52,775 nucleotides of DNA from a virus (lineage: Duplodnaviria > Caudoviricetes), in the IMG/VR virus record IMGVR_UViG_3300032174_000008, positions 1-52,775 of that record; one strand, written 5' to 3'. Each line of letters starts with the position of its first letter. The stretch's first letter is position 1. The notes under the pieces were generated by a model. That model was not told where the DNA came from. It made no database searches and was given only the letters and a program-made list of their open reading frames with translations. This document shows, in pieces, positions 5,600 to 41,707 of the stretch. The translations under genes were made by a program, and so were the position numbers.

Positions 5600-5705
5600 T
5601 AAGCAGTTTTTAAAACTGGTCTAGCGGAGTATAATTACTATCTATCGAAATAGAAAAGCCCGACGCGGTTAACGTCGGGACTTTAAGCCCTGAATTGGAG
5701 GGCAT

Positions 5706-6473
5706 ATGACAGAGTCTAATTCAAACCTGCCTGTTCGTCAACCCGGACAATCGATGTTTGCCGGGTTAAAGCCATCTGGCGACATGTCCAAACCAGAGGC
5801 GTTGACATCTATAAATCAAATCAACAACAAACTGACAGCCATTGAAGGGCATCTAAGTCAAATACGGCGCTTAGTTGTTGAACTGAACGAGCGCAAAGGT
5901 TGGAAAGCGCTTGGCTATACTTCGTTTCGTGAATGCGCTGAAGCTGAGTTTGGAAAGTCAATGCGAACCATTTACAACATGCTTACTTCGGGAATTGTTG
6001 AGCGCAATGTTTTTCCGGACTCGGAGAATTTTGCAGAGTCTGCAAACATACACCCGGTAATACCTGACGTGGTAGCAAAAGAACTGAAAACGCTTGAACC
6101 CGCCGATCAGAAAGCCGTTTACGAGTTTGCCGTTGCGACTGCGCCTGAAGGCAATGTGACGGCACGGTGGGCAAAGGCGACCAGGGTTGTTTACGAGCAA
6201 GCTAAGCTGACGGGCGGCTATGTGGACATCGGCAACGGAGAGAGTACAGCATTAGAAGCTGCTGTCGCTCAAGAAGCACATGAAACAATGCTCCGCCAGA
6301 AACAGCATATTGCCGAGAGCACGAGAAAGAAGATTAAAATCTATAGCGGGCGCGGATTTGTACGCGATGACGGGCTTATCCGGCCTATGGATGACGATCA
6401 ACCTGTCCCGTTCGGGCACTACGTAAAAATAACAATATACGAGGAGGATGAGGAGGAAGATACAACCATCTGA
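5706..6473 (+). CDS. Phage DNA-binding protein (DUF3102-like motif)
   Basis: WKALGYTSFRECAEAEFGKSMRTIYNML motif; GGAGG SD; own -10 TATAAT at 5630-5635. Confidence 0.7.
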   Translation: MTESNSNLPVRQPGQSMFAGLKPSGDMSKPEALTSINQINNKLTAIEGHLSQIRRLVVELNERKGWKALGYTSFRECAEAEFGKSMRTIYNMLTSGIVERNVFPDSENFAESANIHPVIPDVVAKELKTLEPADQKAVYEFAVATAPEGNVTARWAKATRVVYEQAKLTGGYVDIGNGESTALEAAVAQEAHETMLRQKQHIAESTRKKIKIYSGRGFVRDDGLIRPMDDDQPVPFGHYVKITIYEEDEEEDTTI

Positions 6474-6484
6474 CAAATTGGTTG

Positions 6485-6513
6485 TTGACACGCCGCGCAA
6501 TATGATATATGAT
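6485..6513 (+). promoter_or_regulatory. Rightward early sigma70-type promoter
   Basis: TTGACA-N17-TATGAT; last 13 nt identical to the leftward promoter. Confidence 0.8.
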
Positions 6514-6550
6514 TGTGCGTATCGTATGTCACTCTAAAAAGGATCAACGT

Positions 6551-6778
6551 ATGGATTACGCGATCACACTGTTACCCGGCGGCAAGATAATCCGCCTGTC
6601 AACTGTACACTACTGGTGTACGGTTAGCGCGGCCTGGTGGGGCGCGCGCACGGATGCACAGCGCACGGCGTACGCCAACGGGCTGACGGCGAAGAATGCA
6701 CACGGGATCGCGCAAACGAGCGTGCAATGTGGCGCGCGGGCGTGGTCGTTTCCGATGGGAGCGTGGCTCAATGGCTGA
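6551..6778 (+). CDS. Hypothetical protein (MDYAITLL...)
   Basis: AAGGATCAA box before ATG 6551; the track start 6509 lies inside the promoter. Confidence 0.65.
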   Translation: MDYAITLLPGGKIIRLSTVHYWCTVSAAWWGARTDAQRTAYANGLTAKNAHGIAQTSVQCGARAWSFPMGAWLNG

Positions 6779-7046
6779 CAAACCGTTGAAAGTACACGTC
6801 CGTTTGGTGAAGATCGTACCCGGCCCGGCGTTTCTCGGCTGGCGGCGTATCGTGTTGTTTGAGGGCGTTCGCAGTACAGATGAAGTGCAACAAACCGCTT
6901 ACGTCTGGTTACGCGCCTTCATCAACACGCACGACGTTTACATTCCGGGTGACCCAGTATATGGACCGGGAAGGCTGTCTGACATATTCCCCGCTGATCA
7001 TCACATCGGATCGCCGTCGTATCAGGTCGAGGTGAGCTATGTCTGA
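6771..7046 (+). CDS. Hypothetical protein (MADKPLKV...)
   Basis: GGAG SD; 8-nt overlaps with neighbours. Confidence 0.65.
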   Translation: MADKPLKVHVRLVKIVPGPAFLGWRRIVLFEGVRSTDEVQQTAYVWLRAFINTHDVYIPGDPVYGPGRLSDIFPADHHIGSPSYQVEVSYV

Positions 7047-7236
7047 AAAGCTCAGCAACACCTTCGTCGGCACGATGCGACCGCGCGAATACGCGGCGTA
7101 CCAGATTGCGATTGCGGCGGGGCTGGAAGTCAAAGCGCGAATTGAGAAGCGCAAACAGCAGGAAAACAGTGAGCGCCCGGTGAATGCCGAGCGCCCGCCG
7201 ACTTCTGATCAACTGGGATGTCTACTCAATAAGTAA
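7039..7236 (+). CDS. Hypothetical protein
   Basis: GAGGTG SD. Confidence 0.55.
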   Translation: MSEKLSNTFVGTMRPREYAAYQIAIAAGLEVKARIEKRKQQENSERPVNAERPPTSDQLGCLLNK

Positions 7237-7304
7237 CCTCCCTGAATTCCTGAGGGCCAGTTATCTGGCAACGAAAAGCGTAACGCTAAACGAAAAGGAT
7301 TGCA

Positions 7305-7721
7305 ATGGGAAAACACGCAACTATCAAAGCGCTAGAGCCAGTGTACATAACGCTCAGCGACCGAACCAATCCCGACCTGGGGAACTTTCTCAAAATCAGC
7401 ATGAGCGAACAACTGTTCATCAACGCGCTGTCATACTTTGGAAAAGACTTGCCAACGCCGGTATGCGAGTTTCGATTCAATCGACCGGCAAAGCACCGCG
7501 CCGATTTCGCGTGGATGGAAGCGTGGCTGCTTGTCGAATGTGACGGCGGTACACACAAGCAGGGCGGCGGACGGCATGGCGGGGACGCTGACCGGGTGAA
7601 ACTGAACTTTGCCGCCATCCTCGGCTATCGCGTGTTACGTTTCAGCACCGACATGCTGCAATCCAATCCTGAAACGTGTATCCAGGTGGTGAGTAAAGCG
7701 CTTGCTTATGGCAATCGCTAG
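7305..7721 (+). CDS. DUF559/Vsr-like PD-(D/E)xK endonuclease
   Basis: EFRF...RADFAW...LVECDGGTH...GGRH...D..K.N.A...GYRVLRFS. Confidence 0.85.
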   Translation: MGKHATIKALEPVYITLSDRTNPDLGNFLKISMSEQLFINALSYFGKDLPTPVCEFRFNRPAKHRADFAWMEAWLLVECDGGTHKQGGGRHGGDADRVKLNFAAILGYRVLRFSTDMLQSNPETCIQVVSKALAYGNR

Positions 7722-7827
7722 AAACGAAAACGCCGCCGGTAGAAGGATCAAAACTCCGGTAGCGCTTCCGACTTCACCCAAACATACGAACCACGTTTAG
7801 AATACACGTAAATCGTGAAACTGTCAA
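7721..7827 (-). ncRNA. Small RNA with loop TTTTGATCCTT, including its promoter
   Basis: TTGACA(7827-7822)-N17-TATTCT(7804-7799); hairpin CGCTACCGG/CCGGCGGCG then TTTTCGTTTC. Confidence 0.65.
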
Positions 7828-7871
7828 CCGAGGATTAATCCTCATAATTGAGCTTATCGGAAGGAACCAGC

Positions 7872-8153
7872 ATGGACGTTGAACCAATCGGATTTTTGAG
7901 AGCGATAGAACATTCTGATAGCGCATGGGTCGTCACCGCCATGCGTCGCAATTATGGACGCCATCGCACGATAGTCATCGAACGAATGGACAGTCATTTA
8001 GCAAATGACACGACCTGGTTCATGCGCGTATTCAACAAGGGGCTACTTATGTACCAGCGCCCAGGAATCGCCACTGTCTACGATGCAATTGCCCAGGCTG
8101 AAGATTGGATAACGCGACACCCCCACCCCGATGAAGAACAGGAGGCGCAGTGA
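7872..8153 (+). CDS. Hypothetical protein
   Basis: GAAGGA SD before ATG 7872. Confidence 0.65.
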   Translation: MDVEPIGFLRAIEHSDSAWVVTAMRRNYGRHRTIVIERMDSHLANDTTWFMRVFNKGLLMYQRPGIATVYDAIAQAEDWITRHPHPDEEQEAQ

Positions 8154-8347
8154 ATACAAAGGGTCTAGGAAAACGCGAAATAGCCCTGCTCCGTGAGTTG
8201 CGCAAAGCTCCACAAACATATACCTGTTGGGATCGTCGGTTCATTGCATTGGCTGATCGCGGGCTTATTGATGGTAAAGGCGTGTATGGAAGTTGGACTT
8301 TCGCCCTTACTGAGAAGGGTCGCGCCTATGTTGATTACTCCCGATAA
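8150..8347 (+). CDS. Small winged-helix-like hypothetical protein
   Basis: GGAGG SD; LADRGLI...ALTEKGRAY. Confidence 0.6.
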   Translation: MNTKGLGKREIALLRELRKAPQTYTCWDRRFIALADRGLIDGKGVYGSWTFALTEKGRAYVDYSR

Positions 8348-8376
8348 ACGACGATCTCGGAAGTAAAGGATCAACC

Positions 8377-8556
8377 ATGACCAAAATCAAACAACCGTAC
8401 ACCGCCCGCGCCAAAGAGCCGCGAAAAACGTGCCCAGTATGCCGTGAGCTTAACCGGGACTACAGGTACCTCTTTAAGGACGAGTACGGCAACTGGTACT
8501 GTTTAGGTTGCCGGAAGCGCGATAGGTTATTGGCGCTGCACGAGGACCAACGATGA
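8377..8556 (+). CDS. 59-aa zinc-finger protein (not in ORF track)
   Basis: AAGGATCAA box; MTKIKQ...CPVC...WYCLGC...; ATGA overlap with the methylase. Confidence 0.75.
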   Translation: MTKIKQPYTARAKEPRKTCPVCRELNRDYRYLFKDEYGNWYCLGCRKRDRLLALHEDQR

Positions 8557-9269
8557 CTAAGCCGCGATTGCTCGATCTGTTTTGCGGCGCTGGCGGGGCT
8601 GGAGTGGGTTACAGCCGGGCTGGCTTCGAGGTGGTCGGTGTGGACATCGCACACCAGAAACATTACCCTTTCGAGTTTCATCAGGCCGACGCGCTGAAAT
8701 ATGCAGCAGCACACGGCCACGAATTTGACGTGATACACGCCAGCCCGCCGTGCCAACGCTACTCAGTTATGACAAAAGGCAGATGGGCAGACCGCGAACA
8801 TCCCGATTTAATTGCAAAGTCGCGCGCGGTAATCGCTTTGTTCGGTGTGCCATACGTCATAGAAAATGTCAGCGGCGCGTCAGGCGAATTGATTTGCCCG
8901 ATTGTACTGTGCGGTACGATGTTCGGGCTTTCCACAAGAAGCGGCAATCAACTACGACGACATCGGCTGTTTGAATGTGGCGGATTTTGGTGTCTGGTTC
9001 CGAACTGCCAGCACAATGACGGGTCAGCGATTGGCGTCTATGGTGGTGGACAAAACCCGCAGCGTAGACGACCCGCCACTGTTGGCGTATGGGGGCACAG
9101 TGGCGGGTCGTCTACGCGAGATAGGATAGTTCAATTCACAGCAAGCGAACGCAACCAAGCCATGGGTATCGATTGGATGACGCAAGCCGAGTTGTCAGAG
9201 GCCATTCCGCCTGCTTACACCGAGTTCATCGGCAAGCAGTTGATACCGCTAACCGCTTGCGCGCCATAG
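8553..9269 (+). CDS. DNA (cytosine-5) methyltransferase
   Basis: LDLFCGAGG (motif I), ASPPCQ (IV), YVIENV (VI). Confidence 0.9.
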   Translation: MTKPRLLDLFCGAGGAGVGYSRAGFEVVGVDIAHQKHYPFEFHQADALKYAAAHGHEFDVIHASPPCQRYSVMTKGRWADREHPDLIAKSRAVIALFGVPYVIENVSGASGELICPIVLCGTMFGLSTRSGNQLRRHRLFECGGFWCLVPNCQHNDGSAIGVYGGGQNPQRRRPATVGVWGHSGGSSTRDRIVQFTASERNQAMGIDWMTQAELSEAIPPAYTEFIGKQLIPLTACAP

Positions 9270-9285
9270 CAGGCCGGGGTATACT
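9257..9285 (+). promoter_or_regulatory. Promoter for replication genes
   Basis: TTGCGC-N17-TATACT. Confidence 0.6.
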
Positions 9286-9299
9286 CGTAAGCATCTAAA

Positions 9300-9378
9300 T
9301 AGAAAAACCGCCTGCTGGGAACAAGCGGTTTCTGCAAACCACTAAGGTTAGTATAACCCACATGGTTCGCAGTTACAA
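9300..9378 (-). ncRNA. Counter-transcribed small RNA in the rep leader, including its promoter
   Basis: TTGTAA(9378-9373)-N17-TATACT(9355-9350); terminator AAACCGCTTG/CAGGCGGTTT-TTCT. Confidence 0.65.
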
Positions 9379-9402
9379 CCCCCATAGAGAAAGCAAACCA
9401 CG

Positions 9403-10284
9403 ATGACAAGTTTACACTGGGAAGTACGTAAATACGCCCACGACCTGCGACCGGACGGACGGTTAGCGGTTCTTGTGGTGTTGATACTTCATTCCAACGT
9501 TCGATTGCGCTGCTGGCCGAGCGTTGATTTATTGGAATACGAGACGGGTTGGGGTCGCGCCTCAGTCGTTGACGCCAAACAATGGTTAATCGATCACGGT
9601 GCGATTGAACTTGTTCCACATGACAAGCGCGTGGGGGACGAACTTGAATTGCCGCCACGACAACATATTTACCAGTTGACCGGCGTAATTACAGTCAATG
9701 GCGTTCAACACCCTTATCTATACCTGAATCCTAAAGAAACCGCACCGTTGCCCAATAGTACGGTAGGCGAAAGTTCGGTAGGCGAAAGTTCGCCCAGCGA
9801 ACCTAAAGGTATTCCATTGGATCAAGGTATTCCAGAACCTAAAGATAACTATGCGCCTAACGGCGCGGAGCCGGATCTTGATGCTCCATTGACATTCAAG
9901 ACAAAGAGGGGACCGGTCAAACAACCACCGACCTATGGCGATCTGTTCGTTTCAATCCGTGACTGGCTAGGGACTGGAGAAGCGTATACTGGAAAGCTGA
10001 CTAAGGCGTTGCTTAAAGAATGCCCAGATGCTACAGCGCTCGAATTCAAGCGTTTCATTAGCTATTGGAGCGACAGAGGACTCGAAAAGCCCAGCGGCAC
10101 CGATACGCTGCCGAAGCAGTTTGGAATATGGCGCAAGGATCACGTACCTGATGTGAGTGCCGTGATCGAAGTCACGCCCCAGCCAGATGAAACTGCATAT
10201 GGTTGGCTATCAACGTACAAGGCCGCGCCCGCGCCTATCCATCACGAACCGCCCGCTGACGATGACGACATGGGGGTATGGTGA
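9403..10284 (+). CDS. Replication initiator, N-terminal HTH
   Basis: CWPSVDLLEYETGWGRASVVDAKQWLIDHGAI helix-turn-helix; internal iterons; upstream of primase-helicase. Confidence 0.75.
   Translation: MTSLHWEVRKYAHDLRPDGRLAVLVVLILHSNVRLRCWPSVDLLEYETGWGRASVVDAKQWLIDHGAIELVPHDKRVGDELELPPRQHIYQLTGVITVNGVQHPYLYLNPKETAPLPNSTVGESSVGESSPSEPKGIPLDQGIPEPKDNYAPNGAEPDLDAPLTFKTKRGPVKQPPTYGDLFVSIRDWLGTGEAYTGKLTKALLKECPDATALEFKRFISYWSDRGLEKPSGTDTLPKQFGIWRKDHVPDVSAVIEVTPQPDETAYGWLSTYKAAPAPIHHEPPADDDDMGVW
9761..9844 (+). repeat. Iteron-like repeats, putative origin
   Basis: CGGTAGGCGAAAGTT x2 tandem (9761-9790), GAACCTAAAG x2, AAGGTATTCCA x2. Confidence 0.6.
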
Positions 10285-12311
10285 ATATGGACAAGCTCAA
10301 AGCACGCGGCATTGACAGCGTAGCGCTGGACAACGAATGGCGACCGGGGCCGTGGACGCGGCATAACGACGATGGTTCAACGACTACGTTTGATGGCTGG
10401 TACGCACCGCTGTTTGACAGTATGGGTAAGCGCCTGGTAAACCACGAAAAGGGTAAGCCGGTTCTCACCTGGAAAAACGCTGATAGCAGCGCCGATCCCC
10501 ATGATACGTGGATCAACTACATCCAGGGGTATAAACCGCTGATGTTGCCCAAGCGCGGCATTCAGGATAGCGTAAAACGCGCCAACGGCACACTGAACAT
10601 GGTTGAGGGAAAGGCCGATACGCTGTCGATGTGGAGCGCCAAAATCGGGAACTGCATCGGCATATTCGGCGCCAGTTTCGTGCCTGGCGATCTACTTACC
10701 CAATTCCGGCAATGGGGCGTTGACCTGCTGCGCGTGTTCGTACACCCCGACGAGGCCGGGTTGAAATCGGCGCAAAAGATCGCCGATGCGCTGGATGATC
10801 ATCTGGATATCCATTTTCTCGTACTGCCCGAAATCGACGGCAAGAAATTCGATCTCAATGACTTCTGGGTACGCGCCGGGTTTGACAATGCGGTGTTTCG
10901 CACGGCGCTACAAAAGTTGCCCGAACGTGAATTCAAGCCGCGTCCAATTCCTCAATGGAAACCAGTACCCACCGTACCCACCGACATTCCATTGAACCGG
11001 CTACAGGCCTACGCCAACGCCGCGTTTAATCACATCCTGTCCGATTTACTGACCGTGACTAGCGCTCGTAACATCGCGCTGAATAATGCCGCGTTCAAAA
11101 CAGGCACGTTCGTCGGGTCCGGGGCGCTGGACAACAATCACGTTGAGAATGAGTTGATCCAGGCTGGAGTCAGCATCGGGCTGGGCCACAATGCCAGCGC
11201 CGCAACGGTTCTATCCGGGTTGACGGCAGGGGTTAAAAGTCCGGCTGACCTATCGCAATTGAAACCGCGTGACCGACAAACAACTACTCGCGTTCGGATA
11301 ATCGACGCGTCAACCGATGGTCTATCGACTGAAAACGCCGAACCGGATAGCGCGCAAGCCGTGACCAACATAACCACCAAGTCAGCCCTGATTAAGCAGC
11401 GCCGTGCCGAAATGGCCGCCCGGCAAGCAACCAACACACTCCCAATGCCTTTTCAGACGGTAGCCCAGAAACGCGGCTTCGCATCGGCTTTCAAGCGTAA
11501 AAAGGTGTACGCGTTTATCGCTGATAGCGGAGCCGGTAAAACATCGATGCTCGAAACGTTGATTGATTTCTACTTGCAGAACGGGTTTTCCGGTGTGGTG
11601 TACAGTCCAGAGTGGGACGGCGACGAATGGGTTATGGGAACCATTCAGCGGGCTGGCGGCCCGTCGTATATGGCTCAAGTCGAACATGACTCACGCCAAT
11701 CTTCAAACGATACTGAGCACGAGGCCGAATACATCGCTACAGTGAACGCCGTACTTGACCGGATTGACGCGTGGCCTGGTGACATTCGATTTGTCGAACA
11801 AGCCGAATCGCCGTGCGCTGAGGACATCCTTGCCGGAATGAGCGCGGCGTATATCGACAGTGAGGCTAAAGGTAAGCTGCTGTCGTTTGCCGCTGTCGAT
11901 TACGCTCAGATGTTCCTATCCCGAACCGGAAAAACTGAACTTGAGCAGATGAACCGGGCGCTGTATCAGTTCAAACGCTTTTGTATCGCGCACGATATGG
12001 TTGGGTTGGTAGGCAGTCAGATCACCAAAGAGGCCGGGCAAGCCAAAGGCAGGCCGTCGCATACCGGCATGATGGGTGCTCGGTCGGACGCTTTCAATTT
12101 TGCCGCGTTCATTATCCGCGAACGGGACACTGACGACAGTTACAAGCCGAATGCCAAACTGCACATTGTCAAGAATTCGCGCGGCAGGCTGGGCAAGTGC
12201 GAGATATACCAGCATCCCGTTACCGCCGCGTGGCACTCCGGCGTATGGCAACCGGAACCGTACACCAACGGGCGGTATATTGAACCGGAAACGGAGGCAA
12301 TACCGTTCTGA
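10278..12311 (+). CDS. Toprim primase / DnaB-like SF4 helicase fusion
   Basis: VEGKAD and HPDEAG Toprim motifs; RNIALNNAAF middle domain; ADSGAGKT Walker A, AVDYAQ, GSQ, IVKNSRG. Confidence 0.88.
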   Translation: MVNMDKLKARGIDSVALDNEWRPGPWTRHNDDGSTTTFDGWYAPLFDSMGKRLVNHEKGKPVLTWKNADSSADPHDTWINYIQGYKPLMLPKRGIQDSVKRANGTLNMVEGKADTLSMWSAKIGNCIGIFGASFVPGDLLTQFRQWGVDLLRVFVHPDEAGLKSAQKIADALDDHLDIHFLVLPEIDGKKFDLNDFWVRAGFDNAVFRTALQKLPEREFKPRPIPQWKPVPTVPTDIPLNRLQAYANAAFNHILSDLLTVTSARNIALNNAAFKTGTFVGSGALDNNHVENELIQAGVSIGLGHNASAATVLSGLTAGVKSPADLSQLKPRDRQTTTRVRIIDASTDGLSTENAEPDSAQAVTNITTKSALIKQRRAEMAARQATNTLPMPFQTVAQKRGFASAFKRKKVYAFIADSGAGKTSMLETLIDFYLQNGFSGVVYSPEWDGDEWVMGTIQRAGGPSYMAQVEHDSRQSSNDTEHEAEYIATVNAVLDRIDAWPGDIRFVEQAESPCAEDILAGMSAAYIDSEAKGKLLSFAAVDYAQMFLSRTGKTELEQMNRALYQFKRFCIAHDMVGLVGSQITKEAGQAKGRPSHTGMMGARSDAFNFAAFIIRERDTDDSYKPNAKLHIVKNSRGRLGKCEIYQHPVTAAWHSGVWQPEPYTNGRYIEPETEAIPF

Positions 12312-12601
12312 TGAGCGCGATAGCCGATTGGACTGTTGAGGATTTGCTTGTGCTGTTGACCCACGATCTTGACCGCGTGGATATTCGGCGTATAGCTGGA
12401 CGATTTGTCATCATTGACGAATGGGCCGGCGGGTTTCGGTATACTGACCTGACGCCCCTGGTCGATGAGGCGATACGCGCTAAACTGATGACAATCAATT
12501 CAAGGATGCTGTGCTTAACCGGCAAAGGTTACGACATGGCGCGTGACGCCGAACAAGAGCAGTTTATCGCGTCAATCGTATGGAATACCAAAAAGGATTA
12601 A
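12311..12601 (+). CDS. Hypothetical protein
   Basis: ATG directly abuts the upstream TGA; GGAGG upstream. Confidence 0.7.
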   Translation: MSAIADWTVEDLLVLLTHDLDRVDIRRIAGRFVIIDEWAGGFRYTDLTPLVDEAIRAKLMTINSRMLCLTGKGYDMARDAEQEQFIASIVWNTKKD

Positions 12602-12604
12602 CCA

Positions 12605-12832
12605 ATGACCGCCAAACAACTCGTAAAGGCGCTTCTCCTGGCGCTGGTGAACGGTATCACCACCGATGACCTTGACCGGATGATCGTCGCTATCTACCGC
12701 CTCGAAACAGAACGCGAATCGCTCGCTGAGCAGTTATTCATTAGCCGCGCTCAGGTGTACGTGATGCAGCACAAGGATCGGAAGCCGACGCAGTTCAAAC
12801 ACCGGGCAAATCATCTATACTCAGCCGAATGA
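12605..12832 (+). CDS. Hypothetical protein
   Basis: AAGGATTAA box before ATG. Confidence 0.65.
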   Translation: MTAKQLVKALLLALVNGITTDDLDRMIVAIYRLETERESLAEQLFISRAQVYVMQHKDRKPTQFKHRANHLYSAE

Positions 12833-12858
12833 TAGAAAGTGTAAAAAGGATCAAAACC

Positions 12859-15120
12859 ATGTCAAACATCAAATCATACGCCGAATTTCTAGAATCGAAA
12901 ACGCTGATTGTTCAGCCATCGGGCAAGGCAATCGACCCCGCGTTAGTAAATCCTGTACTGTTTCCATTCCAGCGCGATATTGTCGTATGGGCAGTACGCA
13001 AAGGGCGGGCGGCTATTTTCGCGTCTACAGGGCTAGGAAAAACCGCTATGCAGGTCGAATGGGCACGGTTGGTCGGTGAGCGAACAATCATCGTAGCGCC
13101 CCTGTCTGTAGCGCGTCAGACGGTACGTGAATCGCTGTCCTTGTTGGGTGTGACGATAAAGTACGTGCGGGGCGACTCGGAGATTGACGACAGCCACAAG
13201 TTATACATCACGAACTACGAGATGATCGAGCACTTCGATCCGGCGTTGTTTGGTGCGGTTGTACTGGACGAGTCCTCAATCCTCAAATCAATTGATGGTG
13301 CAACCAAAGATCGTCTAATTGAAATGTTCGCCGATACGCCTTATCGGTTGTGTGCCACGGCTACCCCTGCACCAAACGACATCAAGGAATTGGCGAACCA
13401 CTCCGAATTTCTCGGCATTATGAACCGCCGCGAAATGCTCAGTTGCTTTTTCCGGTACACGCAATCGAGCAGCACCGAACGCGCCGACGCGTGGCAACTG
13501 AAGGGGCACGCCGTACAAACGTTTTACGAGTGGCTGGCTTCATGGTCTATCGCTATCGTCAAGCCGTCCGATCTGGGTTACTCGGATAACGGGTACATAT
13601 TACCAAAACTGACCGTTGACCTCGTGACCGCTGAAACCGATTACACGCCGGACGGCTTGTTGCCGGGTATGCTGATCAAGGCGGTCAGCGCGATTGAGGC
13701 GAAACGGTTACGCCATCAAACGATTGCCGACCGCGCCGCGCTGGTTGCCACAACGATAAACGCCAGTGCAGAGCAGTGGATCGTGTGGGTCGGCTTGAAT
13801 GATGAGGGCGACTTGCTCGAAAAGCTGATCGGCGACAGCGTGCAGGTATATGGCAGTCAAACGCCTGAACAGAAATCAGAACTCATCGAAGCATTCCAGG
13901 ACGGTAAACACCGTGTCATGATCACAAAATGCAAGATCGCCGGATTTGGATTAAACCTCCAAAACTGCCATAACATGGTGTTTTTCGGGATCGACTATTC
14001 GTGGGAATCATATTACCAGGCCGTTCGGCGCTGCTATCGGTTTGGGCAACAATTCCCGGTCAATGTTCAGATCGTCACCTCCAGTCAGGAGATTGACGTA
14101 TATAACACTCTCATGCAAAAGGAAAAAGAGGCAACCGCCATGATCGATAAACTGGTGCAATCCGTTGCGCCCAATTCGGAATTGAACCCGTTAGCGCACA
14201 AATCGGCGGCTTACAAAACCGACAAGCAAACCGGCAACGGCTGGACACTGATGCTTGGTGACAGCACCGAACGGCTGAGCGAAATACCAGACGAGTCGAT
14301 TGACTTATCTGTATATTCGCCGCCGTTCAGCGACCTGTTTGTATACAGTGCCAGCGTGCGTGACATCGGCAACTCGAAGTCTCAAAACGAATTCTTTGAG
14401 CATTACGGGTATATCATCCGTGAAAACTTGCGCGTGACGAAACCGGGCCGCCTGTGCTGTGTTCACTGTCAGGATTTACGCGCCTACCAGAACCAGGATA
14501 ACTACATTGGCATGAAGGATTTCACTGGCGACGTTATCCAGGCCTACCGTGATAACGGCTGGGAATTCTGGCATCGGATCACAATCGACAAAGATCCGCA
14601 AGTGCAGGCCGTTCGCCTGAAGGATAGCCGGTTGCTGTTTGTGACACTGCGCAAGGATAGCACGCGGCTGGCCGGTGGGTACGCCGACTACGTGCTGATC
14701 TTCAAAAAACCGGGCGATAATCAGGTTCCGGTTGTGCCTGATGTGTCAGAGCAGGAATGGATCAATTGGGCGCGTCCGGTTTGGAACGGTATCAAAGAAA
14801 CCGCCGTGTTACCCGTTCGGCAAGCCAAGGCGTCAGATGACGAAAAGCACATGTGCCCAACGCAACTACCGGTACTGGAGCGCTGTATCCGGTTGTGGTC
14901 AAACAAAGGCGAAACGGTGTTATCTCCGTTCGCTGGGATCGGCAGTGAAGGGCACGAGTCTATCCGGTTGGGCCGTCAGTTCGTGGGGATTGAATTGAAG
15001 CCGGAATACTACAACGTGGCGCTGATTAACTTGCGCAACGCCGAACACCTCGCCGGGTCACATGACCTGTTCGCGTGGGCTGAACAGAACGCCGAACTGG
15101 AAGTGGAGGGGGAACCGTGA
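12859..15120 (+). CDS. SNF2-like helicase fused to N4/N6 DNA methyltransferase
   Basis: STGLGKT, LDESS, TATPAPN, GLNLQ, QAVRRCYRFGQ; then VYSPPF and SPFAGIGS; start 12859 chosen from the AAGGATCAAAAC box (track start 12829). Confidence 0.9.
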   Translation: MSNIKSYAEFLESKTLIVQPSGKAIDPALVNPVLFPFQRDIVVWAVRKGRAAIFASTGLGKTAMQVEWARLVGERTIIVAPLSVARQTVRESLSLLGVTIKYVRGDSEIDDSHKLYITNYEMIEHFDPALFGAVVLDESSILKSIDGATKDRLIEMFADTPYRLCATATPAPNDIKELANHSEFLGIMNRREMLSCFFRYTQSSSTERADAWQLKGHAVQTFYEWLASWSIAIVKPSDLGYSDNGYILPKLTVDLVTAETDYTPDGLLPGMLIKAVSAIEAKRLRHQTIADRAALVATTINASAEQWIVWVGLNDEGDLLEKLIGDSVQVYGSQTPEQKSELIEAFQDGKHRVMITKCKIAGFGLNLQNCHNMVFFGIDYSWESYYQAVRRCYRFGQQFPVNVQIVTSSQEIDVYNTLMQKEKEATAMIDKLVQSVAPNSELNPLAHKSAAYKTDKQTGNGWTLMLGDSTERLSEIPDESIDLSVYSPPFSDLFVYSASVRDIGNSKSQNEFFEHYGYIIRENLRVTKPGRLCCVHCQDLRAYQNQDNYIGMKDFTGDVIQAYRDNGWEFWHRITIDKDPQVQAVRLKDSRLLFVTLRKDSTRLAGGYADYVLIFKKPGDNQVPVVPDVSEQEWINWARPVWNGIKETAVLPVRQAKASDDEKHMCPTQLPVLERCIRLWSNKGETVLSPFAGIGSEGHESIRLGRQFVGIELKPEYYNVALINLRNAEHLAGSHDLFAWAEQNAELEVEGEP

Positions 15121-15500
15121 GCACCGACCCAATCTTGACTGCGATATTCGAGGACATCCAAAAGGAACTTGTTTACCAAGAAAGCAAGTTCGGCACTGAC
15201 CGCGTACACGAACCGGCGCTCTGGGCTGTCGTTCTGGGTGAGGAATACGGCGAAGTGTGCAAGGCTGTATTAGAGCACGACGGCAACGGGTATATAGCAG
15301 AACTGGTTGACGTTGCCGCTGTATGCGTTAGTGCTATACGATCAGCGTTGCTAGAGCGTGGCGGCAAGCCTGTGACGCGCACCTGTGCCACGAGCACGCT
15401 GAACCTGACCAATCAGGCGCACAAGTCAGCCAAATACCGTGTACCCATCGATTCGACGCTGTACAGGGCACTCGTTGCCGCTGGCATAGTGGACGAATAG
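15117..15500 (+). CDS. mazG: MazG-like nucleotide pyrophosphohydrolase
   Basis: LGEEYGEVCKAVL...IAELVDVAAV. Confidence 0.75.
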   Translation: MSTDPILTAIFEDIQKELVYQESKFGTDRVHEPALWAVVLGEEYGEVCKAVLEHDGNGYIAELVDVAAVCVSAIRSALLERGGKPVTRTCATSTLNLTNQAHKSAKYRVPIDSTLYRALVAAGIVDE

Positions 15501-33895: not shown

Positions 33896-34549
33896 TTATT
33901 CAGCATAACGACACTTCCAACCTTTATGATTAGAGTACTCGCCCCTAGCCACGCGGCACATGCTGCCTGCTGTTAAACCCCGACTTTCGCTAAACCCCTT
34001 TAGATTGACAAATTCAAATTCTTCGCCATCGGGAGAGGTAGCTATCCAATGTAAACTGTGTTTTAGTCTACATTCATCAGACATCTTAACGCCCTTGCGC
34101 GCTTCGCTCATGCGCTTTCGTGCCTCGGGTGAAGGGATTTTACCTTTATGGCTATCGCTCAATTTCTGACGCATCCCGGGCAAGTTAATTCTTTCTTTTG
34201 CAGCGTCACTTATTTTCTTGCGTGTTTCGGGAGAATGCTCACAACCGTTAGCTTTAGGGCAAATATTAAAGCCCCGATTCCCAAAAGGCTTAAGCTTTTT
34301 GAACCAATACTGCTCGCGCTCAAGAACGTTCCAGGGCATAACCAACTCAAGCACTTCAAACCTAAAAGCATCAATGCCGTATTTGTTATAAGCGTTTTGG
34401 AGATGTGCGTTGCCGTGTTTACCAAGCTTAAGCTTGCTAAAATGCGTATGCCGACGTGCTTGCAAATTTACGGCACTACCGATATAGATTTTTCCATTTG
34501 CCGTACACGTTATCATGTAAATCCCGGATGTTGTTGGTATACTTGCCAT
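33896..34549 (-). CDS. GIY-YIG homing endonuclease (NUMOD3 repeats, NUMOD1-like end)
   Basis: SGIYMITC...IYIGSA...REQYW...HSPETRKKIS...HKGW. Confidence 0.92.
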   Translation of the reverse strand: MASIPTTSGIYMITCTANGKIYIGSAVNLQARRHTHFSKLKLGKHGNAHLQNAYNKYGIDAFRFEVLELVMPWNVLEREQYWFKKLKPFGNRGFNICPKANGCEHSPETRKKISDAAKERINLPGMRQKLSDSHKGKIPSPEARKRMSEARKGVKMSDECRLKHSLHWIATSPDGEEFEFVNLKGFSESRGLTAGSMCRVARGEYSNHKGWKCRYAE

Positions 34550-34632
34550 TGGCTGTGCGGTCCTTTCGCATAGTGCCGTCGGCGGTTTGCCCCGCGTGGA
34601 CGGCGTTTACATTGCCGCTAATTATAACTCAT

Positions 34633-34944
34633 CTAAGGGTTATCGGCCTCAAACGGATTAATCACGCTGTCGGCTAATTCAACCTTTGCCTTGAGCCATT
34701 CAATGTAGTGTGCCATCCACGACGGATGCCGGAACTCTATGATATGCGGACTTATGTTGCCATTGAACTCCTTAGGCTCATGCAACAAAGCCTCAAACAA
34801 TTCCTTCTCCATGTCCGCACGGTACTTGACCCACGCCGCGTCAAGTGACGCCTTTGCGATTTCGACCTTGCGCTTGCCAGCGTCACGCGCCTCTATTTCG
34901 GCGTCGTTTATATCCATAAGCACACCGAATTTCGATTTACCCAT
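34633..34944 (-). CDS. Hypothetical protein
   Basis: ATG overlaps the upstream gene end. Confidence 0.55.
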   Translation of the reverse strand: MGKSKFGVLMDINDAEIEARDAGKRKVEIAKASLDAAWVKYRADMEKELFEALLHEPKEFNGNISPHIIEFRHPSWMAHYIEWLKAKVELADSVINPFEADNP

Positions 34945-35248
34945 GATGCACCACACTTTCCACGATAATCGCCCCGGCACTGAACCCAAACCAATCGAGC
35001 GCGGCGATCAGCCAGCTATCGCCCCGGTACAGCGCCACAGCCAGTGCCACAACAGCACTAACCCACAACGACATGCAAAACACGCAGCAAAAAGCACCGG
35101 CCAATCCATGCCCAACGCACTGACTATACTCATCGTGTCTAACCCCCACGGCATGCCGTAACTTGGCAAACACGTCACCCGGCCCGGCTTCGGTTACGAT
35201 GAGTGAGCTAATTCTGAACGTAACTAACATACATAAAACCTCAAGCAC
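34937..35248 (-). CDS. DUF1360-like membrane protein
   Basis: LVTFRISSLIVTE.GP...F..LR...CVFCMSLWVS; start uncertain. Confidence 0.7.
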   Translation of the reverse strand: MLEVLCMLVTFRISSLIVTEAGPGDVFAKLRHAVGVRHDEYSQCVGHGLAGAFCCVFCMSLWVSAVVALAVALYRGDSWLIAALDWFGFSAGAIIVESVVHHG

Positions 35249-35945
35249 GTCTACACTTCCAGCCTTTATGGTGTTTGGCATAACCGTATGCCACTTGTCC
35301 CATAGCGCTACGATTAAGATTATGCTCGAGACAAAAACGCTGTAAATTTACAATTTTCGCCTCATGCCCATCAGGATCGATAACAACCCACTCGAGCGAT
35401 TTTGAGGCACTCATCTTTTCGCGTATCTCGAGTGAAGGATTTTTGCTTGCGGCACTAAGCTTCGCACGTGTTTCTTCGGTAGGATGCTTTCCCTTGTTCG
35501 CTGGTGATTGTCCTTTGTGAGATACGCTCAGTCTTTCTCGAGTTTCGGCTGAATGATGCTTTCCTTTATTCCATGCCGGTTTTCCAATATTCGAAGCGCT
35601 AATCCTTTGGCGTACTTCCAAAGGAGCGTTAAGCATTGGAGATTCGGCATTACGTGAAACATTAAAACCACGTGGCTCGAATGGTTTTAATTTGTCGAGC
35701 CAATATTGCTCTCGAGCCAATAATGCAAACGGAAAAACGTATTCTAGAACCTTAAACGTGAAACTTTCTTCGCCATACTTGTTCCAAGCGCTTTGCAAAT
35801 GGCGATTACCGTGTTTATTGTGACGTAAGTTAGAGCAATGCTGCTGCATACGCGTGCGCAGATTTGCCGTGCTACCTATATAAATTTTCCCATTTGCAAT
35901 GCACGTGATCATGTAAATTCCCGAAGTTGACGATATACTTTCCAT
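35241..35945 (-). CDS. GIY-YIG homing endonuclease (paralog)
   Basis: SGIYMITC...IYIGST...REQYW...HSAETRERLS...HKGW. Confidence 0.92.
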   Translation of the reverse strand: MESISSTSGIYMITCIANGKIYIGSTANLRTRMQQHCSNLRHNKHGNRHLQSAWNKYGEESFTFKVLEYVFPFALLAREQYWLDKLKPFEPRGFNVSRNAESPMLNAPLEVRQRISASNIGKPAWNKGKHHSAETRERLSVSHKGQSPANKGKHPTEETRAKLSAASKNPSLEIREKMSASKSLEWVVIDPDGHEAKIVNLQRFCLEHNLNRSAMGQVAYGYAKHHKGWKCRRA

Positions 35946-36029: not shown

Positions 36030-38702
36030 TTAAAGCGCAGCTACAGGCTGACGCTGAATTGTTGGTGGGGGCGGCGGGATAGGAGTAGATTGCTTTTCCT
36101 CGGCTATTTCTGCTATGGGAGTAAAGCGCTGATCGTTTTGAAGATCTGCCAATTTTACGTAGAATGTCGCACCGCCCATTCGGTATCCATAGTTTGTTTT
36201 TGTTATTGGCCCGTACACTTGCGTTTGTCCGGGCGGCCCGTTGTACACGATCCTCACCAGTTGATCGGGCGTTGGCGGTTGGCCGTTGACGCCCTGGATA
36301 ACCTGCTTGCTGGTTGGCGCATTGTTTTTGCAGCCGCACATTTTGCCTCCTGAGATGTACTCGCCATACTTCTGATTGAACGCTGCGATAATTTCAGCCT
36401 TGATCGTTTCGCCCCGTTCACGCCGCTGGCCGGTCAAATATCGGTATATGAATAATGGCTCAGCCACGCGCGCGCCGCAAATATCGGCCTTCGCAAGATC
36501 CATGAAATATTGGACGTCCTCCCAGGATACCATCGATTCATCGAAGCCGCCGATTTGTTCGTGCCACGCCTTCTTAAGTAGGATGTTCACGGCATGACCT
36601 ACCGGCTTTTGGAACACATCCCCCGTCACAAACTCCGGCGTTTCGTGCCCTTCGAGCATGCCCTCTTTGTTCACCGATAGCCAGTCGGTGTACACGTACC
36701 GCCCGGTTCGCTGGTACATGCGCAACGTCTTTTCGAGGAACGTCGGCATCAAGATGTCATCGGCATCGAGAAACGTCACGAACGGCGCTGTAGCGTGTTT
36801 GACGCCCAGATTACGGGCTGCCCCTGCACCAACGTGCCCCGCCGTATCGATTACGCGCGCCCACGGGAACGGCGCAAGTCCGGGTAGCGGTTCGCCGGTA
36901 TCGTTGACAATGATCGCTTCCCAGTATCGCTCAGTCTGGCGTTCTATGCTGTCAAGGGCTTGCGCTAGATAAGGAATGTGGTATCCGGCCACTGGCACAA
37001 TAACCGATACCTTAGGCCGATCGTAGTTGCGTACCGGGCGCGCAATGCCAGCGGCGGCCAGCGGGTATTGCTTGTCATTTATAAATGGCTTGTCTCCAAC
37101 CCAGTCCGGTTCGGTTTGTTTTCCAGTTCGCACACCTTCAGATAAACTCCCGCTGTGAAGGCGATAATGAAACCATCCGGCATCAGTGACCTGTTTGGCA
37201 CGGAAGCCAAGCGAGACAATGCGCAAGAATAACTCTGCATCCTCAGCCGGTTGATACTGCGAGCGATAGCCTCCCGCTCGACGCCACGCATCACGACGAA
37301 ACATGCAGCACGTTGGCACTTGGTTATGGCGGTCAACTTGTTTCTCCCACGAAAATCCTTTAGGCCACTCGCTGACAGCGCCTAACTTGCCGTCAGCATC
37401 AATCGTCTGCAATCCGGTGAATGCAATGCCCAGCCCGCGATCAGCGTCTAGAGCATCGGCTAACGTTTGCAGAAAGCGCGGATCACCTAACTTGTCATCG
37501 GCATCCAGACAACAGATATAGTCGCCCTTTGCCTCTTTGATGCCGCGATTGCGCGCGTTGGCGACGCCGGAGTTTGGCTGATCGATAACACGCGCGTCAT
37601 ACAGAACCTGGTTTGTATCGAAGCCGGAAACGCTAAGTGCTTCGATTATCGCGTCATGCGACCCGTCGGTTGATCCGTCGTTGACTATAATTAATTCGAC
37701 ATTCCATCCTGTAGTCGGTGCTTTTAACGACTGTTTAGAAACGCTGGCTATCGCCTCACCGACATATTGCGCGTAATTGTGGCACGGAATAATGACGCTA
37801 ATTTTTGGATGTGAATGCGTGTCGAATAGGCTATCGTAAACTTCAGCAATCGAAGCCGCCACGCCCTGCCACGTGAACAGCCGTGCGACTTCGCGGGCGT
37901 TCGCGCCCAACGTTTCGCGGTGCTTGAGACAGTACGCCAACCCTTCAATTAGCCCGTCAATGTCGCCTGGTTCGCACAAAAAACCGTTAATGCCGTGTTT
38001 GACAAGATTCGGCATGTTGCCGTGTGCGTAGCCAAGTATTGGCACTCCTGCAGCCATGAATTCTAGCGCCCCAATGCAAAACGTTTCCTTCGTGGTACAC
38101 AATCCGATAGACGCGCCTCGAATTAGACCTTTCATCACGTCAAAAGTTTGACGCCCGATGACGCGCAAGTTCGGAGTCGCCGCCTGCCCGAACGTGCTCA
38201 GGAAGTGCATCTGTGGCACTTTCTTTGCCAGTTCGGTGATCGGCGTCGGGTCGCACACCGGATCGCTTCGGGTCTTATTCCACAACACATACCCTTGATT
38301 GTTGCCCGGTTCCCACTCGTCAAAGTCGATGGCCCACGGGATCACCGTCGGATTGATGTGGCAATCGCGCCTCAGCAGATCGGCAACCCATTCGCTGGGA
38401 GCGGTTACGACACGCGCCGACATAAAAGAATTCACAACTCCCTGATTGGCACTGACCATCCACGGTTCAATCAGGTGCGGGTAAGCGCTTGGGTATAAAC
38501 CATGGAGATGTGCCACGTCGGGCTGTCTGTCGTTGTGTTGCCCTGCATGTCCAGCAATTAAATCGGCTTCATTTATATTTTCGGTGAGTTGATACCCCCA
38601 CTCGGGTAAAGACTTCTCGAGATGGATTGTTATCGCGTTTATGCTGTTGGTCAGATCGTTTCTCGCATGAGATGGCAATGGCATCATGTAGCATTTACGC
38701 AT
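36030..38702 (-). CDS. Multidomain glycosyltransferase (GT4 + GT2 + GT2 + C-terminal extra domain)
   Basis: ETFCIGALEFMAAGVP (GT-B); ISVIIPCHN...VNDGSTD...ARNRG...LDADD; VSVIVP...ARNLG...LDADD; start 38702 preferred over track 38753. Confidence 0.9.
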   Translation of the reverse strand: MRKCYMMPLPSHARNDLTNSINAITIHLEKSLPEWGYQLTENINEADLIAGHAGQHNDRQPDVAHLHGLYPSAYPHLIEPWMVSANQGVVNSFMSARVVTAPSEWVADLLRRDCHINPTVIPWAIDFDEWEPGNNQGYVLWNKTRSDPVCDPTPITELAKKVPQMHFLSTFGQAATPNLRVIGRQTFDVMKGLIRGASIGLCTTKETFCIGALEFMAAGVPILGYAHGNMPNLVKHGINGFLCEPGDIDGLIEGLAYCLKHRETLGANAREVARLFTWQGVAASIAEVYDSLFDTHSHPKISVIIPCHNYAQYVGEAIASVSKQSLKAPTTGWNVELIIVNDGSTDGSHDAIIEALSVSGFDTNQVLYDARVIDQPNSGVANARNRGIKEAKGDYICCLDADDKLGDPRFLQTLADALDADRGLGIAFTGLQTIDADGKLGAVSEWPKGFSWEKQVDRHNQVPTCCMFRRDAWRRAGGYRSQYQPAEDAELFLRIVSLGFRAKQVTDAGWFHYRLHSGSLSEGVRTGKQTEPDWVGDKPFINDKQYPLAAAGIARPVRNYDRPKVSVIVPVAGYHIPYLAQALDSIERQTERYWEAIIVNDTGEPLPGLAPFPWARVIDTAGHVGAGAARNLGVKHATAPFVTFLDADDILMPTFLEKTLRMYQRTGRYVYTDWLSVNKEGMLEGHETPEFVTGDVFQKPVGHAVNILLKKAWHEQIGGFDESMVSWEDVQYFMDLAKADICGARVAEPLFIYRYLTGQRRERGETIKAEIIAAFNQKYGEYISGGKMCGCKNNAPTSKQVIQGVNGQPPTPDQLVRIVYNGPPGQTQVYGPITKTNYGYRMGGATFYVKLADLQNDQRFTPIAEIAEEKQSTPIPPPPPTIQRQPVAAL

Positions 38703-38811
38703 GGCGGCACATCCAGTGACGATGATGGTTACGCCTACCGTTGGCAACTGCACACATTTTCGTTGTACTTAGTCCGTTCTGACGGCAAAATTCAGTTAAG
38801 TTGTGCACTTC
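38695..38811 (-). pseudogene. Remnant of a third GIY-YIG endonuclease C-terminus
   Basis: EVHNLTEFCRQNGLSTTKMCAVANGRRNHHRHWMCRHA* aligns with the ends of both intact GIY-YIG proteins. Confidence 0.75.
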
Positions 38812-39100
38812 GTTCAATGTCTTCTTGCTCCTGAACAAATCTCATACGGGCATACAGGTTCGCGCTGCCATAATTTCGATACTCAGGTTTGCGCTCCCAA
38901 CCTAAAAAACTGACGGGTTGCCATTTTCCGGGAACATCCCGATTTAGCATTAGTTCGACTTCGCGAACGGCGTCTTCTTTTGTTGCATAGTCGAATTTCT
39001 GGCAATATTCAAAATCAACAATCCCCCACGGATTGTAGTAGATACGATAGACAGTCGGGACCGTAAGGTCTACAACCAAGTGGGGATTTTCGGCTTTCAT
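38792..39100 (-). CDS. Hypothetical protein
   Basis: ATGA overlap with the methyltransferase. Confidence 0.65.
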   Translation of the reverse strand: MKAENPHLVVDLTVPTVYRIYYNPWGIVDFEYCQKFDYATKEDAVREVELMLNRDVPGKWQPVSFLGWERKPEYRNYGSANLYARMRFVQEQEDIERSAQLN

Positions 39101-39702
39101 GCCGTTCGCTCCAAAACCAGCATCGTATGAACCACCTTGACCGACTTCCAGCTATCGGGATTCTCCGCCTTCCAATCTGCCACGGCCTTGCTCACTTCAA
39201 CGTGTAGCGGGTGCGCAACGTGCCCTGGATGTGCGTCGCTAGCGGTCACGGCGTTATCGTGTACCAGCACAAAGCCGCCAACCTTAACCAACGGCGTGTA
39301 CAGCGATAAGTCGGCAAGTGCATCAGTATACGAATGCCCGCCGTCAATGAACAAAACGTCAATAGCTTTGTTGCGCAGTTTCTTCTTCAGTTGAGCGAGC
39401 GTCGCCTTGTCGCTCGAATTGCCGACAATTAGCGGCGGCGGTACTAACCCGGCCTCGGTCAGGTTCGCCGAGTACGCGTCAAGTGGGTTGATCTCAATGC
39501 CGTATACGGTTGCGGTGGGCGCGTATTTCACAAACGCCGCCATTGAGCGTCCGAATTCCACGCCGACATTAACGATTACGCCGCCTTCGGGTACGGTTTT
39601 CGCGTACTCGATCAGCGTATCTTCCTCATCCGTTTCAAGCCAGCCGGGTACATCCGTGTACGGGCTGTACGGTGCATTACCGATCATCGTACCCCCTTTC
39701 AC
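39097..39702 (-). CDS. Class I SAM methyltransferase (Methyltransf_24-like)
   Basis: IVNVGVEFGRS...DVLFIDGGHSY...VKVGGFVLVHD. Confidence 0.88.
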   Translation of the reverse strand: MKGGTMIGNAPYSPYTDVPGWLETDEEDTLIEYAKTVPEGGVIVNVGVEFGRSMAAFVKYAPTATVYGIEINPLDAYSANLTEAGLVPPPLIVGNSSDKATLAQLKKKLRNKAIDVLFIDGGHSYTDALADLSLYTPLVKVGGFVLVHDNAVTASDAHPGHVAHPLHVEVSKAVADWKAENPDSWKSVKVVHTMLVLERTA

Positions 39703-41146: not shown

Positions 41147-41707
41147 TTAGATTGTTCTCCGTTGCTCTGCCATTGAATATAATGCGAACTTGCTCAAATT
41201 CGCCTCTTTGAACTTCTTCGGTCTACGTGCTTTGATGAACACACCCGGTTCAGACGGATCATCCATCAGCGCGAGTATCTCAAAGTCGGCAAAGATCGCC
41301 CGCATGTCATCACAATTGTAGCGCCAGGCGTCTATCGGGTATTCGTGATATTGAAATCCTTCCGACCGCGTGGTAATGAATAACACGCCGCCCGGTTTCA
41401 ACACGCGTTTGTAATTGCTGATCACCGCGCGCCAGTCGCTAACATGCTCGATTACCTCAGTCGATACCAGCACGTCAAACGAGCGCGCGCCGAACGTTTT
41501 TACAAGATCCTCAGCCGCGCAAATGCGATCAACACAGATACCCGGTACGATGTCCGTGCCAACGTATCGATTACAACCCAGCCGCTCGAAATGCCAGCGT
41601 GCCGAACCGTTCACGTCCTGCGAACCGCTTTCGATAATGTCCTTGCCGAATGCCTCGTCTTTAGCAAGGTTGTCGCGCACGAATTCAAGGCAACGTATAT
41701 TACACAC
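41147..41707 (-). CDS. Class I SAM methyltransferase (Methyltransf_11-like)
   Basis: IESGSQDVNG...FDVLVSTEVIEHV...RVLKPGG...HEYPIDAWR. Confidence 0.9.
   Translation of the reverse strand: MCNIRCLEFVRDNLAKDEAFGKDIIESGSQDVNGSARWHFERLGCNRYVGTDIVPGICVDRICAAEDLVKTFGARSFDVLVSTEVIEHVSDWRAVISNYKRVLKPGGVLFITTRSEGFQYHEYPIDAWRYNCDDMRAIFADFEILALMDDPSEPGVFIKARRPKKFKEANLSKFALYSMAEQRRTI

Follow-up and report, generated by a model that had tools for sequence, protein, structure and literature searches.

A candidate antisense RNA unit resembling lambda OOP and P22 sar before the replication initiator gene of an uncultured soil phage

The stretch of DNA considered here (the window, 52,775 bases) is a complete IMG/VR virus entry, IMGVR_UViG_3300032174_000008, from an uncultured phage recovered from soil metagenomes, and the element in question is a putative antisense transcription unit on the 5′ side of its replication initiator gene, rep. 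Comparison with PHROGs shows the genes of a tailed phage (among them terminase, tape measure, minor tail protein, and endolysin genes), and the rightward early block, positions 5706-15500, includes a cytosine methylase gene, the lambda-O-like rep gene, and a primase/helicase gene (Table 1). The methylase and rep genes are separated by a gap of 133 bp, which the unit occupies: a candidate antisense promoter that faces a candidate sense promoter, a hairpin with the form of a minus-strand terminator, and repeated copies of a 9-mer, one of them next to the rep start codon. We regard these elements as a candidate antisense regulator of rep of the kind represented by lambda OOP and P22 sar, a reading on which our own judgment is evenly balanced.

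The initial annotation described two promoters facing each other, and both can be read in the sequence as it described them. The antisense promoter was listed by a consensus scan; the sense promoter was not, its score of 8/12 falling below the threshold. A relaxed scan of positions 9200-9440 found only two -10-like elements on either strand, the two TATACT hexamers, one per strand. Canonical promoters are also in use by the phage (TTGACA-17-TATGAT, with two occurrences in a divergent control region). An alternative antisense promoter spotted by eye, TTGTCA (9409-9404)-17-TATGGG (9386-9381), would produce an RNA of ~80 nucleotides (nt) with two hairpins, and is unlikely given that its -10 element lacks the final T.

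Leftward transcription from the antisense promoter would run into a hairpin whose stability depends on the strand. Folded alone, the 9303-9333 hairpin reaches -17.1 kcal/mol as minus-strand RNA (z-score -4.36, with none of 200 shuffled sequences as good) and -9.9 kcal/mol as plus-strand RNA (z -0.99, 34 of 200 shuffles as good), where the tail reads UUUCUGC and the three wobble pairs turn into C·A mismatches. Taking both leader hairpins together, all six wobble pairs are G·U in the minus-strand RNA and none is in the plus-strand RNA, for which the one-sided chance is 1 in 64. The 49-nt minus-strand RNA from 9343 to 9295 folds at -17.2 kcal/mol (z -3.57, one of 200 shuffles as good), and the first ten bases of the predicted RNA, AGUGGUUUGC, are unpaired in the centroid fold; the length of ~47 nt presumes a start 7 nt after the -10 element. 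A minus-strand open reading frame (ORF) across the region (9215-9658, 147 amino acids) had no family match and is therefore treated as spurious, which leaves no minus-strand gene there to terminate. Rfam returned nothing at gathering scores, its only two matches being at chance level (E-values of 2 and 5.6). In silico, the small RNA proposed initially, self-terminating and antisense to the rep leader, is plausible.

The 9-mer GCAAACCAC lies opposite the 5′ tail of the predicted RNA and again 1 nt ahead of the ATG of rep, in agreement with the initial annotation. Its description as a duplicated seed holds for the two direct copies and is incomplete, as the leader carries three copies in the order direct, inverted, direct, two of which form the 41-nt palindrome. 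Two exact copies of GCAAACCAC exist in the 52,775 bases, and at least two were found in 17 of 100 shuffled sequences, which makes the count alone not significant. What is significant is the position of the second 9-mer at the rep start. The duplex between the RNA tail and the rep start, at -15.9 kcal/mol, is the best among 61 gene starts and is matched by 0.19% of 7,032 genome windows, which bears out the earlier claim that the tail matches a second site there. A search of viral contigs for the pattern GCAAACCAC-N45-72-GCAAACCAC returned 80 loci, none of which resembled the region by blastn or carried a rep relative by tblastn; these are chance matches.

Folding predictions place the two direct copies in different states. 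In the free sense leader the mean unpaired probability is 0.26 for copy 1 and 0.78 for copy 2. Blocking positions 9297-9343, as binding of the antisense RNA would do, gives a minimum-energy fold in which 9363-9370 is paired to 9393-9400, and the unpaired probability of copy 2 drops to 0.51. The palindrome itself folds at -14.4 kcal/mol as sense RNA (z -3.70) and at -23.8 kcal/mol as minus-strand RNA (z -7.17, none of 200 shuffles as good), the greater stability on the minus strand arising because its three imperfect positions are G·U there. It contains the -10 element and the spacer of the antisense promoter and abuts its -35 element.

A second unit with a similar arrangement lies at 5607-5741, in the divergent control region and at the ribosome site of the first gene of the early block (Table 1). 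A genome-wide custom scan found 42 promoter-like sites and 12 terminators, and a promoter followed by a terminator within 120 nt occurred only here and at the rep unit. The ~57-nt RNA predicted for this sister unit folds at -23.8 kcal/mol (z -5.23, none of 200 shuffles as good) and would cover both the Shine-Dalgarno (SD) sequence GGAGGG and the ATG at 5706. The two units, which are possibly paralogous, share the 10-mer AAATAGAAAA, whose only two exact copies in the genome (5648 and 9297) each lie 12-13 nt after a plus-strand -10 element and directly before a hairpin. The number of copies is not above chance (three matches at up to one mismatch, with as many in 56 of 100 shuffles), so that only the position of the 10-mer argues for paralogy. 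A search with the pattern of a -10 element plus the shared 10-mer found nine loci, seven at 25-30% guanine-plus-cytosine (GC) content and two at 42% GC, none of them similar to the region. Since the sister unit sits on an early gene unrelated to replication, the device looks like general early-gene control and not like replicon copy control.

Table 1. Features of the rep leader, the similarly arranged unit at 5607-5741, the related locus L015, and neighbouring genes. Positions are those of the window except for L015.
Feature	Position	Strand	Remarks
Candidate sense promoter, TTGCGC-17-TATACT	-35 9257-9262, -10 9280-9285	+	8/12 (3/6 + 5/6); predicted start ~9292
Candidate antisense promoter, TTGTAA-17-TATACT	-35 9378-9373, -10 9355-9350	-	Listed at 9/12; predicted start ~9343
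Leader 10-mer AAATAGAAAA; read on the minus strand, the terminator U-tract UUUUCUAUUU	9297-9306	+	12 nt after the sense -10, directly before the hairpin
Putative terminator hairpin, 14 pairs including 3 G·U, then U-run UUUUUCUAUUU	9303-9333	-	Folding and custom scan
Predicted antisense RNA, ~47 nt, with free 5′ tail (A)GUGGUUUGC	9343 to ~9297	-	Start taken from the -10 element, 3′ end from the U-tract
Copy 1 of GCAAACCAC	9334-9342	+	Sequence; predicted cis target of the RNA tail; left palindrome arm
Copy 2 of GCAAACCAC	9393-9401	+	Sequence; -10 to -2 of the rep start, followed by G9402 and ATG 9403
Third copy, inverted and degenerate, GCGAACCAT	9363-9371	-	Palindrome analysis; internal anti-seed, predicted to pair with copy 1 or alternatively copy 2
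Imperfect palindrome of 41 nt (sense-leader hairpin 2)	9332-9372	both	Arms are copy 1 and the inverted copy
Sister unit, sense promoter TTTTTA-17-TATAAT	5607-5635 (-10 5630-5635)	+	Sequence
Sister unit, exact 10-mer AAATAGAAAA	5648-5657	+	13 nt after the -10
Sister unit, hairpin forming a predicted minus-strand terminator	5659-5679	-	Listed by the standard scan
Sister unit, antisense promoter TTGACG-17-TAGACT	5741-5713	-	Listed at 9/12
First early gene, phrog_464	5706-6473	+	Function unknown; predicted target of the sister unit
L015, minus promoter GTTACA-16-TATAAT with TG	833-806	-	10/12; only promoter-like site in 1,015 nt; abuts rep ATG 835
L015, minus terminator, 12 pairs	748-718	-	Only terminator in 1,015 nt
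Cytosine methylase gene	8553-9269	+	Pfam; upstream of rep
rep, replication initiator, 293 amino acids	9403-10284	+	phrog_270, 8.9e-6; phrog_678 (replication initiation O-like), 1.3e-4
Primase/helicase gene	10278-12311	+	Family scans; overlaps the end of rep

The start of rep at ATG 9403 is backed by the N-termini of aligned homologues. Conservation of the N-terminal winged-helix part extends to 25 metagenomic proteins, with 52% identity over 54% of the query for the best of them, and the HTH_36 domain was found in 15 of the 19 aligned family members; the family profile had no match in the PDB by sequence, and rep had none in NCBIfam. Tandem and dispersed iteron-like repeats lie inside the gene at 9757-9850, 355-450 nt from its start (the tandem repeats at 355-399 nt), and the main ones, AGTTCGGTAGGCGAA, GAACCTAAAGGTA, and AAGGTATTCCA, are all unlike the 9-mer. 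Tandem Repeats Finder (TRF) placed repeats of differing sequence at the same relative position, 350-460 nt into rep, in 8 of 13 family loci (the window together with L004, L007, L008, L010, L012, L014, and L016), in the linker after the winged-helix domain. The replication origin is therefore probably inside rep, as in lambda O. A 14-codon ORF at 9362-9406, MVRSYNPHRESKPR, ends in a TGA that overlaps the rep ATG as ATGA; it was considered as a translated leader peptide, which is doubtful because the nearest SD-like sequence, AAGG, lies 14 nt upstream and no usable SD is present.

The SD of rep is weak relative to the extended motif AAAGGATYAA found at the ribosome sites of other genes of the phage, and rep should therefore be sensitive to occlusion of its ribosome site. 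The motif itself occurs six times (at 4822, 6538, 8365, 12592, 12845, and 32665) against 0.13 expected. Five of these copies immediately precede start codons, including those of the first genes after three promoters, and rep is without it; the motif may be a shared translational operator or enhancer.

By position, the closest known system is the tO-oop-pO block of lambda, outlined in PMC3349717 as a 77-nt self-terminating RNA made opposite to pR between cII and O, in a gene order, cII-oop-O-P, that is common to lambdoid phages. Similarly, the RNA predicted here would be short, self-terminating, and opposite to the early rightward transcript, and its unit lies directly 5′ of an O-like initiator gene with intragenic iteron-like repeats, followed by a primase/helicase gene where lambdoid phages have a helicase-loading or helicase gene (PMC3349717). 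The activity of lambda pO is described as lowering pR transcription and affecting replication (PMC3985674), and the candidate antisense promoter is likewise convergent with the one that would drive rep transcription. However, the target of OOP is the mRNA of cII, whose 3′ end it overlaps, and here there is no coding overlap: the upstream methylase ORF stops at 9269, and the predicted end of the RNA, ~9297, lies ~28 nt after that stop. The RNA would also be ~47 nt long as opposed to 77 nt. A blastn search of positions 8500-12400 against 50,697 phage records covered only the methylase gene and never the gap among the matches listed (30, with 64 further records), and neither these matches nor Rfam gave any sequence homology to the lambdoid oop/pO block. 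The unit thus departs from the OOP family on two defining points, overlap with the upstream gene and sequence homology, and is not a member of it. To our knowledge, a second target copy at the start of the initiator gene has not been described for OOP.

Judged by its target, the predicted RNA would work more like the plasmid counter-transcripts that act on rep leaders, and also like P22 sar. In the Pant/Psar region of P22, the sar promoter lies face to face with the sense promoter of ant. The rep unit would likewise produce a small antisense RNA from a promoter facing the sense promoter of an early gene, and the RNA of the sister unit, from 5741 to 5650, would cover an SD and an ATG as sar does for ant. 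The target at rep differs, being a replication initiator and not an antirepressor, and the rep-side RNA (9343 to 9297) would stop short of the rep ribosome site (9386-9405), which it matches only via the repeated 9-mer. A line in one review gives sar as a small antisense RNA (PMC5415839).

The likeness to plasmid counter-transcripts that was drawn initially is sound in that antisense control of an initiator is mechanistically similar. As predicted here, CopA/CopT-tap-repA of plasmid R1 and Inc RNA-repY-repZ of IncI/IncB plasmids set a cis-antisense RNA with a hairpin and a single-stranded tail against the leader of an initiator gene, and a short ORF abuts the rep start codon; pairing in cis at the phage locus presumes activity of the sense promoter (8/12) or read-through from upstream. 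The IncI antisense RNA is also summarised as preventing a long-range pairing between the leader and the ribosome-binding site (PMC8053102), which is conceptually near the arrangement of copy 1, anti-seed, and copy 2, although the long-range pairing activates translation there and the predicted pairing here would repress it. The phage further differs from R1 and IncI in its 52.8-kb tailed-phage genome, in which no plasmid maintenance genes were detected, and in a mini-ORF that lacks an SD.

What the sequence and the folds show are the elements themselves, their strand-dependent stability, and the uniqueness and placement of the 9-mers; from these we infer a scheme for the firing of the promoter, the two ends of the RNA, and its effects on rep. 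A minus-strand promoter of host type (sigma-70-like; 9378-9350) would fire toward the weaker sense promoter (9257-9285), transcription would halt at the strand-specific intrinsic terminator (9333-9297), and the ~47-nt product would be the complement of the rep leader over its first ~50 nt. Expression of rep could then be damped by way of the duplex between RNA and leader, together with interference between the convergent promoters. The free 5′ tail might also pair with the identical 9-mer at -10 to -2 and so block the ribosome, or the capture of copy 1 could free the anti-seed at 9363-9371, which would fold onto copy 2.

Several observations weigh against such an antisense regulator. The promoter scores assume sigma-70 consensus rules, which may not be those of the host, and the antisense promoter is the sole site listed by the consensus scan in 8500-10000 against 1.4 expected by chance, which is no enrichment. 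The 9303-9333 hairpin was not listed by the standard terminator scan, presumably because its maximal stem absorbs part of the U-run, and was recovered by the custom scan as a 14-pair stem. Two promoter-to-terminator units were seen against ~0.68 expected from site densities (p ~0.15), and co-occurrence alone is therefore weak evidence, to which the common 10-mer and layout add, as does an antisense orientation where no minus-strand genes lie. The palindrome so stable as minus-strand RNA lies 5′ of the predicted start and is left unexplained by a 47-nt RNA, and the hairpin between anti-seed and copy 2 is weak by itself (-5 kcal/mol, z -0.6). When 9334-9392 is set in register against 9393-9451, 30 of 59 positions match, and 21 of 50 beyond the 9-mer, a level reached by 0.5% of genome windows; copy 2 could therefore be a relic, the rep start having undergone a 59-nt tandem duplication that has since decayed. 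The phage sequence was found in two soil DNA sequencing runs, with no RNA run among them; the contigs of both runs are identical over the shared phage parts, and the second run is without a piece across 9342-10009.

The comparison with related loci also tells against the unit as a general feature of such genes. Profile searches for rep relatives yielded six viral loci, eight metagenome loci, and one genome locus, of which 12 are non-redundant (L009 is the same as L003, and L011 overlaps L015); single-protein searches of viral contigs found no relatives. Identity is 35-52% and confined to the N-terminal domain, none of the 12 has an alignable upstream region, and no close relatives were found in the collections searched. 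Of 13 loci, two (the window and L015) have a clear minus-strand promoter and terminator before rep, and a weaker unit is seen in L005; the other ten are without one, and in most of them rep abuts the upstream gene without a gap. In L015, a predicted RNA of ~90 nt (fold z -3.64) would cover the SD and the ATG of a 14-codon ORF that has a strong SD and ends 2 nt before rep, a layout reminiscent of CopA and tap of R1, in a phage-type contig; positions 700-835 of this locus are the same sequence as 1-147 of L011. The layout of the predicted unit thus recurs in unrelated sequence, which speaks for the antisense reading, yet the family as a whole does not conserve it.

Other explanations dispense with a regulatory RNA. 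The hairpins at 9333-9297 and 5679-5650 could be insulating terminators without a dedicated small RNA, stopping stray leftward transcription before two rightward promoters; the transcription could originate in read-through of the late operon or at internal antisense promoters (12865-12838 and 7827-7799, for example), and the adjacent promoter-like matches and the second 9-mer would be products of chance or relics of duplication. We consider this unlikely. Each terminator does end close to a predicted sense start (5-10 nt), antisense promoter-like sites of greater strength (10/12) exist further right, the two promoter-to-terminator units are not significant on their own, and the signs of a 59-nt duplication could explain the second 9-mer. 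However, the late operon is already closed by a strong minus-strand terminator at 15535-15509, a promoter-like site lies at most 60 nt upstream of the terminator in both units, a layout that L015 repeats, and insulation leaves unexplained why the 9-mer stands at the very 5′ end of the RNA and at the rep ribosome site. A signal acting in DNA is, in our view, quite improbable. Three copies of GCRAACCAY (direct, inverted, direct, their centres spaced 29-30 bp) would, along with the 41-bp palindrome, bind a protein. This could be Rep acting as an autorepressor, in the way that initiators of iteron plasmids use inverted partial iterons, or some other regulator; a further option is that the palindrome forms a hairpin in single-stranded DNA that is used during replication. 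The sequence GCRAACC occurs four times in 9334-9803 against ~0.28 expected from its genome density (32 per 52,775), and the copy at 9797 falls within the iteron-like origin region, where it reads CAGCGAACCT, similar to the palindrome arm CTGCGAACCA; this excess and the origin copy keep protein binding in play, and the palindrome also covers the antisense promoter. Against it, complementarity is nested over all 41 nt, with an inner GGTTA/TAACC, as a folded strand needs and two protein half-sites do not, and the three imperfect positions are all wobble-compatible on one strand. The main origin repeats differ from the 9-mer, and the chance of one copy landing in the origin region is ~0.06.

Copy-number control of the plasmid type, in which a constitutive and unstable counter-transcript would track genome dosage in an episome or carrier state, is very improbable. 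The geometry does resemble that of R1 CopA, tap, and repA, for which the plasmid mechanism is summarised in PMC8053102, and in both the window and L015 a 14-codon ORF stands at the rep start, the latter ORF with its strong SD lying under the predicted antisense RNA. However, the mini-ORF of the window has no usable SD, the rest of the genome is typical of a tailed phage, the sister unit has a non-replication gene as its predicted target, and lambda OOP, as outlined in PMC3349717, has the layout without a plasmid state. No partition, integrase, recombinase, resolvase, ParA/ParB, repressor, or other maintenance family was detected among 64 ORFs searched against PHROGs or 52 against Pfam, in a genome where many ORFs have no family; the sole hint is a sub-threshold LexA_DNA_bind match at 51558-51884. 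The dosage control and the episomal or carrier state that the initial annotation derived from the unit are therefore unsupported, and the antisense unit gives no evidence on a plasmid or carrier lifestyle.

Within the antisense reading, a more elaborate possibility, which we hold to be rather unlikely, is that the rep leader works as a two-site switch built from the three 9-mer copies. Copy 1 would be held in a hairpin and copy 2 left open; the RNA, on taking copy 1, would let the anti-seed close copy 2, and its tail might also bind copy 2 directly in the manner of a trans-acting small RNA. Together with the unit on the first early gene, this could form a phage-wide antisense timing circuit that shuts off early and replication genes, in a genome in which no lysogeny genes were detected.

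Two further promoter arrangements in the early region were seen alongside these units. An antisense promoter-like site with a perfect -35 element, TTGACA-17-TATTCT (7827-7799, 10/12), stands back-to-back with a plus-strand site at 7821-7848, and leftward of it (window 7720-7850) a hairpin is followed by UUUUCGUUUCU, the fold not being significant (z -1.24). A third face-to-face pair consists of TTCAAA-16-TATACT on the plus strand (12794-12821) and TTGACA-16-TACACT on the minus strand (12865-12838), whose predicted starts are ~3 nt apart, just 5′ of an SNF2-helicase/methylase gene with a likely start at ATG 12859.

Elsewhere in the window, a direct repeat of 127 bases at the two ends (1-127 and 52649-52775) sits within the large-terminase ORF, which continues over the junction; the repeat therefore stems from overlap in the assembly of a genome that is circular or permuted, and is not a physical terminal repeat. 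Two paralogous genes for GIY-YIG homing endonucleases (33896-34549 and 35241-35945) lie within a low-GC patch (33896-35945), which is adjoined by clustered genes for glycosyltransferases and methyltransferases (36030-38753, 39097-39702, 41147-41707, and 41700-42470). This cluster and the three DNA methylase domains of the early region may serve functions in DNA or surface modification.

OOP-like control is itself already known, and what is particular to this phage is that the 9-mer is triplicated and that a similar unit stands on the first early gene. If the predicted RNA is real, it would add one more lambda-type replication module with an antisense unit at the initiator gene, in a soil phage very distant from the lambdoids. 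The repeated 9-mer offers a clean and cheap test of whether a cis-antisense RNA can also use a short seed to act on its target mRNA at a second site.

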